IMG/VR virus record: IMGVR_UViG_2721755728_000008
DNA length: 40,851 nucleotides
DNA from: a virus
Lineage: Duplodnaviria; Heunggongvirae; Uroviricota; Caudoviricetes
Direction: 5' to 3' (one strand)
This document shows positions 24,001 to 27,000 of this stretch, piece by piece. Each line of letters begins with the position of its first letter. Positions within the stretch are counted from its first letter, which is position 1. Made by a program: the position numbers.

Positions 24001-27000
24001 TTTTTTTGACCGCGCGTTTCCGGACGTATTCTGTTCTCCTGTCCCTTTATATCGTCGGAATACCCGCCGCTCTTCAAATCCCATTCCCAACTCAGAATGT
24101 AGTCTGTTGACCGCTTGTTTTATTTCGGTCAGGTTCACCGGTGAAACCGGAGTCCGGCGCGCCTTACGCAAACACTCTGCTCGTTTCTGTGCCGCCACTT
24201 TTCTTTTCTGGTCATCACTTAGCTGTACCATCACTTTTGCCCATCGTTCAGCTGCTCTCCGGTACAGTCCTTTTTTCTCCAGACATTCTGCCACGTGATC
24301 ATGTAGCATAAGTGACCTCCGATTATCTACAGACTGCCATCCTGAATTTACCTTCCCTTAATGAAATAACAATAAAAAACAAACCACGCAAAAACAATAA
24401 AACAACACACAAAAAAAACTAAATAATAAACAAAAATAATCACCTTATTTTATTATTTTTTGAGGGAGCAATTACTGAACAAAAAACGCTGACTATATAC
24501 TCAAAACCAAACAACTATTCTGCCAATCAGGTATCATGGCAACACACGGAATTACCGTGTTTTTGCCTTCTCTGCCCATACAATACGGGCATATACTTCA
24601 TTCTCTATTGTAATATTTCTATCCATGTGCCCCACTCCATTTACCTGTAAATAATATTCAAAATATTTATCACAGAAATCGTTTTTGGCCATGAACTGAG
24701 CACACTATAAAGTCCGGAACTGACTCTTTGTTAAATTACCTTAACGTTACCAGTAACACCTTCATAACAAAACATCACGGTATACACTGGGTACGGATAT
24801 ATTCCTGTGCTCCTTCCAGTTGCTTCTGCATTGCCATCAGCCGTTCTCTGAGGATGAAATAATCCCGTTCAGCGGTGTCTGCCAGTCGGGGGCCGGTTGC
24901 ATTATCCACGCCGGAGGTGCCGGTGGCTTCACGCACGGTACCGGAGCAGGTGGCGTTGATCCGCAGGCGCTTACGACCAGCGGCAACATCAGCACGCAGA
25001 GTTTCATTTTCAGCTCTCGCATCGGCTAATTCCCTCGAGTATCTGGCATCAAGTGCAGCGACATCACGCTGGCGTATCTGCATATCAGTAATTGTCGCGT
25101 TCGCCAGCTCCAGCTCACTGGCTTTTTTATCGCGCTGCTCTTTGTAGATGATGGCGTGATCACGGTAATGATTCAGCCCCAGACTAAGCGCACCACAGGC
25201 CACCAGCAGGACAATGATAACCACGCACAGAACACGGTTCATATCACCACCAACGGATTGCCCAGACCAGAACAGCAATGGCCACAATACGAATGGCAAA
25301 AGCTGCCGCTCTTGTTAAATCCAGACTGGCTGGCGTCTCCACTTCAATGCCTTTCATAATGGACAACCTCAGAAAGAATCTTTTATACTTCCTCACAGGG
25401 AAAGTACCTCCCTACCCATAATTTCTCCCTTGCCTTACTCAAGGTCAGAAAACACAAAACCCCGCTTGCTGCCAACAAACGGGGTTTTTACTTTTATTCA
25501 CTTAGGTTTTACCAGTTTTCAGGATTTCGTGTTATCCACCCGCGTTGGCCAACGTCATTTTTCAGGAAAATATTCTGCTATCTGTCGATGTCCCAGCACG
25601 CCAGCGCGCTCTCCTGGTCACGCCGTGAGACCTGACCGTAGCAATTATTTGAACGGATACGGCAGTCTCTGCCACCGTCCTTAATCCACCAGCGAATCGC
25701 CTCACAGGCACCTTTTCGATCGCCTGCATTAATTCGTTTATAAAACGTCGACGGGAAGCACTTACCGGGGCCAATGTTGTACGGACAGAATGACGCGATC
25801 CCCGCTTTCTGGGGTTCGGTCAGCGGCACCCGGATGTTTTTCTCCACCCATGCCAGCGCCTTGTCACGTTCGATGGCATTAACCCGGTCGCATTTTTCCT
25901 TTGACAGCTTCATGCCAGGAATAACAGGCTTACCATCCACCAGAATGGCACCACGGCAGATGGTCCAGATCCCCGCACCATCACGGTATGCCGTGGTGTG
26001 GTTACCTTCCTTTTCATCCAGAAACTGGTCGAGGATTTCAGGCGCAGAAGCACCTGCACCAATCAGCGCCAGAACGGCAGCCGACAGGCCGTATTTTATT
26101 TTTTCGTTCATGGGGATTTATCGATTTCTAATCCCTTGATATGTTAGGTATATAATCCAACACTCATGGTCGCTCTCATAAACATATCCCTTGAGACGCA
26201 GCAGATTACAACAAATGAAGCCATATAAATGAACAGTAAAGAAAGTTTGCGCAGAAGATTTTTACAACTAATGACAGAAAACGTTAAATCAGAGTTACTT
26301 CTTCTGATGGCAGATAATAACGAAGCAACAAGCAGCATTCTTGCAGACCCTTACGGTAAGATCTCACATAAAACGCTGGATATTATTACCACAACATTAA
26401 CACCGCTGATGCTTCAACGGCTGAAACATAATATCAACGCATGGGTTAATGAAGAATTAAGTCCTCCCTGCTTATGGGATTCTCGTTACGCATGTCAGCA
26501 AAAAATGCGAATTTTCAACTTACTATCACCAAAGCTCAGGTAGCCATAAAATCCTGCCCTTCATGGCATACAGGATTTCAATGGAATCACAATGACCAAC
26601 TCTTGCACAGCTGTATCCCTGACTCCCCGACAACTCAGATTTTCAGTATCTGCTGCTATCTAAAGAGAAAGCGCACAAATGCAAGGGTCTTTCATCACGT
26701 CCTGTTATTGATTGCCTGTGACCTTTTCTCACCTCATGGAACGTTTTTTCAGTTAGAAATATTCATTTTACAACCAGTTCGTATTGTTTATTCATCGACT
26801 ACTCTCCCCGCGCCACCTTACGCTTATCTTCTTTAATCTTGAAATAAAGGTTAGTCAGATACGTCAGCAGGCCAAACAGCAGACTCCCCAGCACACCTAT
26901 TGCCACCCACTGGGACGGAGAGACTTTGTCCAGCAGTTGCAGTAACCAGTATCCCGTCCCTACCGCTGACGTGGTGTATGACACACCTGTTGTGATTTTT

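Follow-up and report, generated by a model that had tools for sequence, protein, structure and literature searches.

A conserved antisense gene and the probable remains of a late gene between holin and endolysin in a Shiga toxin phage-like prophage of Escherichia coli

In phage lambda, the lipoprotein gene bor, which has a known lysogen phenotype, lies after Rz on the strand opposite to the late operon. In Stx phages and in the Qin prophage, genes of the YdfR/DUF1327 family (PF07041) are found between the holin gene S and the endolysin gene R, in the direction of the late operon. In Stx2 phage 86 (gp05/gp06, or orf5/orf6) and in Stx2_12E129 (genes 290/300), the same slot holds a co-directional gene, here called A, followed by an antisense gene of a second family, here called B, and then by R. 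How does a locus with an antisense ORF and no intact co-directional gene between S and R compare with these systems? The window analysed here is the whole stretch of 40,851 nucleotides of the IMG/VR record IMGVR_UViG_2721755728_000008, a lambdoid, Stx-phage-like E. coli prophage whose late genes lie on the minus strand. Its S-R interval is likely to be a composite accessory slot, made up of a self-contained, moron-type gene B and the wreck of a late gene A.

The S-R interval and its occupants in relatives

The left flank of the interval is R (25578-26111, minus strand), whose product of 177 aa is a lysozyme (Pfam Phage_lysozyme PF00959, E 7.6e-24; also called 'lysozyme' by PGAP in O26:H11 11368) with a hydrophobic N-terminal segment, as in SAR endolysins. 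An Rz gene with embedded Rz1 is located at 24775-25299 on the same strand. The right flank is S (26799-27005, minus strand, with the ORF open to 27074), a holin of the P21/pinholin type (PF04971, E 4.5e-32; 'class II holin family protein' in PGAP) with 68 aa counted from Met, and a nanS-p-type SASA esterase gene follows at 27296-29146, again on the minus strand. One feature of S itself should be noticed. The upstream start of the P21-type dual-start motif is absent, since the codon is ATA in the window (27005-27014, minus strand) and ATG in relatives (L005; L008, MKSMDKISTG), and the 68-aa form is therefore the only one with an ATG start. The antiholin of S21 is the longer form, and by analogy a holin without the upstream start may give a different lysis timing.

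The gap between the two genes spans 687 bp (26112-26798). With a GC content of 0.392 (window 0.51, R 0.543, S 0.502), it falls within the lowest 10% of 687-bp segments, some other islands in the window being more AT-rich. The initial annotation had described an AT-rich block of about 690 bp carrying a 104-aa ORF antisense to the lysis operon (26229-26543, plus strand), and this description is accurate. It had also taken that ORF as the only substantial one, which is not the case, for the block holds a 120-aa ORF (26474-26836, plus strand) and a 64-aa ORF (26144-26338, minus strand) as well. Neither of these two matches a family in Pfam, NCBIfam, PADLOC or PHROG, and the 120-aa ORF overlies sequence that is not conserved in relatives. 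The 64-aa ORF is open in several relatives, but its frame and ends shift, and we rejected it as a gene in favour of a by-product of the B coding frame. Does the interval encode a known regulatory RNA, such as hok/sok or a prophage sRNA? No Rfam match up to E = 1 was found across 25500-27400. The hok/sok system had been raised by a literature match and was discarded; the paper concerned does not place hokW-sokW in the S-R slot.

Are S and R normally adjacent, as had been supposed? The interval and its flanks were compared by megablast with 50,697 phage records. The 156 matching records match in the flanks only, and none covers 80% of the query. Those inspected phage records that have both flanks show an S-R gap of about 400 bp with a co-directional YdfR/DUF1327 gene, and other inspected relatives, including Stx2 phage 86, show A with or without B in the slot and gaps of up to about 1.26 kb. 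Adjacency is therefore not the rule in this phage group, in which the slot holds either ydfR/DUF1327 or A with or without B. Four states were seen, namely ydfR only, A only, A plus B, and B only as in the window, and such variable presence is characteristic of morons. The S-R slot of Stx-type phages is thus a hot spot of recombination, in which at least four states of occupancy exist. The sequence comparison indicates that the interval arose from a larger module by replacement and deletion and not by a simple 690-bp insertion. The earlier suggestion of an inserted moron or its remnant holds in so far as the DNA is of the accessory moron type, with a conserved B and a decayed A, but the simple insertion has to be given up. 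Similarly, an occupied S-R slot is standard among close relatives, but the content found here is only one variant.

This variant is itself widespread. Copies of the interval with at least 99% identity were found in 621 records from about 620 of the 5426 complete E. coli genomes, and the serotypes with the identical interval are O26, O103, O45, O111, O145 and O157, with EDL933 included. The layout is common and fairly ordinary in Shiga-toxin-type prophages.

The end of the interval next to R is shared more widely still. The leader upstream of R (26112-26149) is common to all relatives, and homology to the ydfR-only phage WGPS2 runs through R as far as 26149 and ends there. Relatives have these approximately 38 nt immediately before R whether or not they carry B, and the idea that the block uncouples R translation from S is therefore not supported. 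A small difference was observed at this end of the interval. Directly upstream of the R start codon, 10 nt (ATATTTATCA) are lost in the window type (window 26095-26125 compared with relatives), at a site where the relatives have a tandem ATTTATCAGG/ATTTATCGG repeat. This loss may have consequences for the initiation of translation of R or for the B promoter in its upstream part.

Gene B and the putative signals for its expression

Is the antisense ORF a real gene? In the profile search that had been proposed for it, the 104-aa protein matches phrog_1853 with E 3.5e-47, residues 1-102 lying on profile positions 57-158 of 159. The family, PHROG 1853, is labelled function unknown. No relative was found in Pfam, NCBIfam, PADLOC, PDB (sequences, by profile search) or BFVD, and the absence of a match to PF07041 sets B apart from the DUF1327/YdfR family. 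Homologues of B have 103-109 aa and are 47-79% identical, and the MNSKE start is kept within its own clade. Pairwise Nei-Gojobori dN/dS values among eight homologues are 0.12-0.39 at dS of 0.47-3.6. In the two porin-context loci described below, L018 and L019, the BLAST homology to the window is just the B ORF (26228-26542). These comparisons indicate that B is a genuine gene under purifying selection, and the conservation that had been left in question is there. The form annotated by PGAP is shorter, with 90 aa from 26271 (WP_000138558.1, window 26271-26543). Since residues 1-14 are conserved, 26229 is the better start, and the PGAP start should be moved to it. The exact 104-aa protein is present in EDL933 as an 'unknown protein encoded within prophage CP-933O' (2001). 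For B, no data on function or expression were found in the literature on its protein accession, DUF1327, lysis-cassette variation and CP-933O.

What kind of protein is it? AlphaFold2 with a 13-sequence alignment predicts a five-helix bundle (pLDDT 89.4, pTM 0.80), and there is no membrane or hydrophobic segment (maximum KD19 0.66-1.16). According to the model, B would be a soluble, all-helical five-helix protein of about 12 kDa. The GC content of the gene is 0.384, compared with 0.543 for R and 0.51 for the window, a deviation in base composition of the kind known for morons. The family is tiny. An exhaustive profile search of 1.84 billion clusters at 50% identity found 20 representatives at E <= 0.001, all of them short, with no larger multidomain relative. 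B was not found in a scan of one genome per species (GTDB), and the family is seen only in E. coli-type prophages.

Where would the transcription of B start? There is a TATAAT, a putative -10 box, at 26152-26157 on the plus strand, 72 nt upstream of B. The -35 element in the window is weak, with CTAATC at 17-nt spacing, and the plus strand of the R leader (26112-26149) forms the -35 and upstream part of the putative promoter. Among seven diverged B upstream regions, GTATATAATCC with a perfect -10 box is kept in six, including the porin context, while neighbouring columns vary; the seventh has TACAAT. In L019 the box pairs with TTAACC at 16-nt spacing, giving a match of 10/12. The clade of B found in phage 86 has a different upstream region without TATAAT. 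Taken together, the most likely assignment is a sigma-70 promoter for B in the window.

Downstream of the B stop no intrinsic terminator was found. The hairpin there (-12.8 kcal/mol, z -1.6) is without a U tail, and neither the hairpins after the stop nor those in the 5' UTR of B are better than shuffles. Promoter and terminator prediction, which the initial annotation had put forward as a check, therefore gives a divided answer: the TATAAT is kept in most upstream regions, but a simple consensus promoter scan calls none upstream of B in the window and no terminator follows the gene. The next strong plus-strand terminator after B is at 27259-27288 (-22.7 kcal/mol, z -5.1), just past S and 8 nt beyond the nanS-p stop. 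A minus-strand terminator at 27060-27086 (-21.5 kcal/mol, z -4.0), directly before S, is kept in phage 86. The two hairpins face each other upstream of S, and the stretch between them (27087-27258) has no Rfam match and no clear promoter.

In the composite slot that we propose, B would be transcribed from its own sigma-70 promoter, with the TATAAT at 26152 and the upstream half in the R leader, pointing against the late operon. Like other morons on the opposite strand, it would be made in the lysogen, and late transcription running head-on into it would silence it after induction.

Could it be the transcription and not the protein that matters? With no terminator between the B stop and S, and with a strong plus-strand terminator just beyond S, transcription from the B promoter could run head-on into S (into A in the relatives) and serve as an antisense brake on leaky holin and endolysin or as a tuner of lysis timing. 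The tail-to-tail geometry kept in all variants would suit such an action in cis, which would also be compatible with an additional role of the B protein. However, it is the protein sequence of B that is under purifying selection, the plus-strand terminator was not found in phage 86 or L008, and B in the porin context has no lysis genes facing its 3' side, so we consider this reading unlikely. It is quite unlikely, too, that the B unit is a safety device of the lysogenic phase, in which the head-on promoter silences leaky holin and endolysin transcripts and the B protein could antagonise A or an incoming relative. If that were true, spontaneous lysis or superinfection would be under the control of a prophage gene that is widespread in EHEC.

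Probable remains of gene A and the separability of A and B

What is contained in the rest of the interval? In relatives, gene A (189-329 aa, PHROG 1085) lies on the late strand between S and B. It is arranged tail-to-tail with B, the 3' ends being 8-9 nt apart or overlapping by 21 nt. In Stx2 phage 86 it consists of a YdfR/DUF1327 N-terminus fused to a C-domain of about 150 aa. No recognisable toxin domain and no Pfam or PDB sequence relative was found for A. In the window, the other 255 bp of the interval are probably the wreckage of this co-directional gene, with two pieces kept. The first is a start stub at 26763-26795 (minus strand), beginning 3 nt after the S stop codon, in which the first 10 codons of ydfR/A (MNKQYELVVK) are followed by a premature stop. 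The ydfR start of L001, L012 and L024 is 87% identical to the stub over 38 nt, and in another genome (H104) the match lies under a 'YdfR family protein'. The second piece is a remnant of the A C-terminal domain, of the PHROG 1085 type, at 26550-26722 (minus strand), with an in-frame stop and a frameshift. A tblastn search with the A protein of phage 12E129 aligns residues 143-186 (44 aa) at 36% identity (E 1e-4), a profile of six A C-domains gives 13.4 bits on the remnant (E 1.6e-5 in six frames), and a co-linear C-terminal ..YAMKGRI motif is found in a second frame, at the place where intact A genes end and 6 nt away from the stop of B. The likeness to A alleles at the DNA level is weak (z = 5-6 for two of six alleles), and the remnant is probable rather than proven. 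The interval beyond B would be a pseudogene stump, and that B has stayed intact beside so heavily decayed an A speaks for its being kept on its own account.

A further trace of the history of the slot was observed in phage 86. Just upstream of its B, the 3' end of ydfR with the stop is present in a diverged copy (L012 2885-2925, compared with L001 2595-2625), carrying a terminator-like hairpin on the B strand (CGCCAG..CTGGCG followed by T5). The copy suggests that the A C-domain and B lie inside a split ydfR, and that they may have entered ydfR, or left it, as one block.

Do A and B depend on each other? Among 79 B loci in IMG/VR, 48 are of the window type without A and 30 have A; among 80 A loci, B is present in 45 and absent from 34. 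A abuts R at 40-46 nt in 31 of the 34 B-less loci, and in two of three aligned A-only loci the last four B codons are fused to the R leader. The preserved codons indicate that B was lost there by a clean short-homology deletion which left A intact. Intact A adjoins B everywhere except in the window type, the porin context of L018/L019, the remnants L014/L017 and the short contig L072, and B without lysis-slot neighbours occurs in decayed prophage remnants. A and B are separable in both directions, which weighs against a toxin-antidote relation, and the obligate co-occurrence expected of a toxin-antitoxin or effector-immunity pair is not seen in these counts. An ancestral functional link between A and B may have existed. 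PADLOC gave no match for either protein at E <= 1, with no toxin-antitoxin or defence model.

B was also observed in another setting. In L018 and L019, which represent another lambdoid prophage type, a B homologue of 72% identity is located 395 bp upstream of an Lc/NmpC-like porin gene. The two genes (L019 1608-3430; L018 4001-5823) are co-directional and antisense to the late operon, and lie between Q and a Phage_holin_8/holin_3_7 pair, a different holin type. Parts of both neighbours have moved with B: from R the start codon region and about 55 nt of the leader, from A a stub of the 3' end. It follows that the cassette was transplanted from an S-A-B-R slot. Because the A stub and the R leader came along, the association of B with the porin gene may be only a by-product of recombination.

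If A were a late effector and B its antagonist or immunity protein expressed in the lysogen, the B of the window would be an orphan immunity gene after the loss of A. Immunity genes are typically retained as orphans when the partner is lost, and the persistence of B fits this pattern. Other points in favour are the convergent arrangement with close or overlapping 3' ends, the presence of A in every full-size slot variant with B, and the appearance of the phage 86 A C-domain and B as one block inside the ydfR 3' end. Yet 34 of the 80 A loci have no B, with clean deletions of B and an intact A in the aligned ones, and 48 of the 79 B loci have no A. Neither protein is matched by toxin-antitoxin or defence models, B has no membrane segment and A has no recognisable toxin domain. 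A functional pair is therefore very unlikely. A colicin-like order, with an immunity gene between toxin and lysis gene, was also considered and rejected, as B lacks a membrane segment and the two genes assort independently. Finally, that B is a chance or dead frame in an inert recombination scar or a non-coding RNA locus is scarcely credible, for although PGAP labels it only 'hypothetical protein' with a different start, and B has no domain match and a very small family, the frame stays intact at 47-79% identity under low dN/dS, its fold is confidently predicted, it survives next to an A remnant decayed beyond DNA recognition, and Rfam gives no match.

We thus come back to the composite accessory slot. 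Here A, with its YdfR/DUF1327-type N-terminus and C-domain, would have been destroyed by an internal deletion and then decayed. During lytic growth the Q-modified polymerase would read S, the A wreck, antisense B and then R. Since the R leader is the same as in relatives, lysis should not be impaired, and the deposited phage genomes with the order S-A-B-R (Stx2 phage 86, Stx2_12E129) are evidence that a phage can function with this layout. That the promoter is active, that B is expressed in the lysogen and that late transcription reads through is our inference. Our best guess is that B acts in the cytoplasm as an accessory factor which binds protein and is of advantage to the lysogen, through exclusion, defence or host modulation, and not as a lysis protein; an antisense effect on S in cis, or antagonism of A, is less likely than such a role.

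Prophage context and comparison with known systems

Several other features of the window should be mentioned. At the prophage end, abutting the start of the window, there is a gene for a type III effector glycosyltransferase of the NleB/SseK family (1-981, minus strand; PF24688, E 5e-181; GC about 0.33). In the early region, a 3-kb AT-rich island (33750-36950, GC 0.30-0.35) includes an ORF without Pfam match (34508-35215, plus strand), a SAM-dependent methyltransferase gene (35222-35881, plus strand) and a gene for a SMEK-domain protein (36196-37095, minus strand) that matches the PADLOC model Aga_REase-PNTD1-PNTD2 with E 1.4e-20. We regard it as a candidate defence island. Three tRNA genes, Arg-tct, Arg-tcg and Met/Ile-cat (30227-30476, minus strand), lie upstream of the nanS-p region, in the place of the tRNAs that precede stx in Stx phages. 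Judged by ORF size, there are no stx genes between the tRNA trio and nanS-p in the window. The homologous locus of O26:H11 11368 has TerB and DUF3927 genes between the tRNA and nanS-p positions.

Why should B be of concern? It is found in about one ninth of the complete E. coli genomes, including EHEC of serotypes O157, O26, O103, O111 and O145, and effector or toxin genes are present in the prophages that carry it. Its place is within the cassette that sets the time of cell lysis and thereby of the release of toxin and phage. Should B have an effect on lysis timing, spontaneous induction or phage exclusion, this would have consequences for prophage dynamics and for the release of Stx. For all that, B adds one more to the uncharacterised morons; it has been annotated as hypothetical since 2001 and is real but ordinary for its phage group.

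How, then, does the locus stand among the known systems? Like lambda bor and other morons, B is an accessory gene near the lysis genes, opposite to the late operon, deviant in composition and present in only some relatives. Unlike bor, it encodes a soluble helical protein, lies between S and R, and has no terminator after it in the window. With the YdfR/DUF1327 genes of Stx phages and the Qin prophage the locus shares the S-R slot, and the window even keeps 10 ydfR codons; B differs from ydfR in being antisense, whereas ydfR is co-directional with the late operon, and in being unrelated in sequence. The Lc/NmpC-type porin moron context resembles the window in that B is antisense to the late genes, there upstream of a porin gene in the same direction, but that cassette is located between Q and a different holin type and not between S and R. 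The S-R slot of Stx2 phage 86 and Stx2_12E129 holds the same module, with a co-directional A, an antisense member of the B family (phage 86 gp06 matches PHROG 1853, as B does) and then R. These phages differ from the window in that their A is intact (213-268 aa), and their B is 47-53% identical and has a different upstream region.
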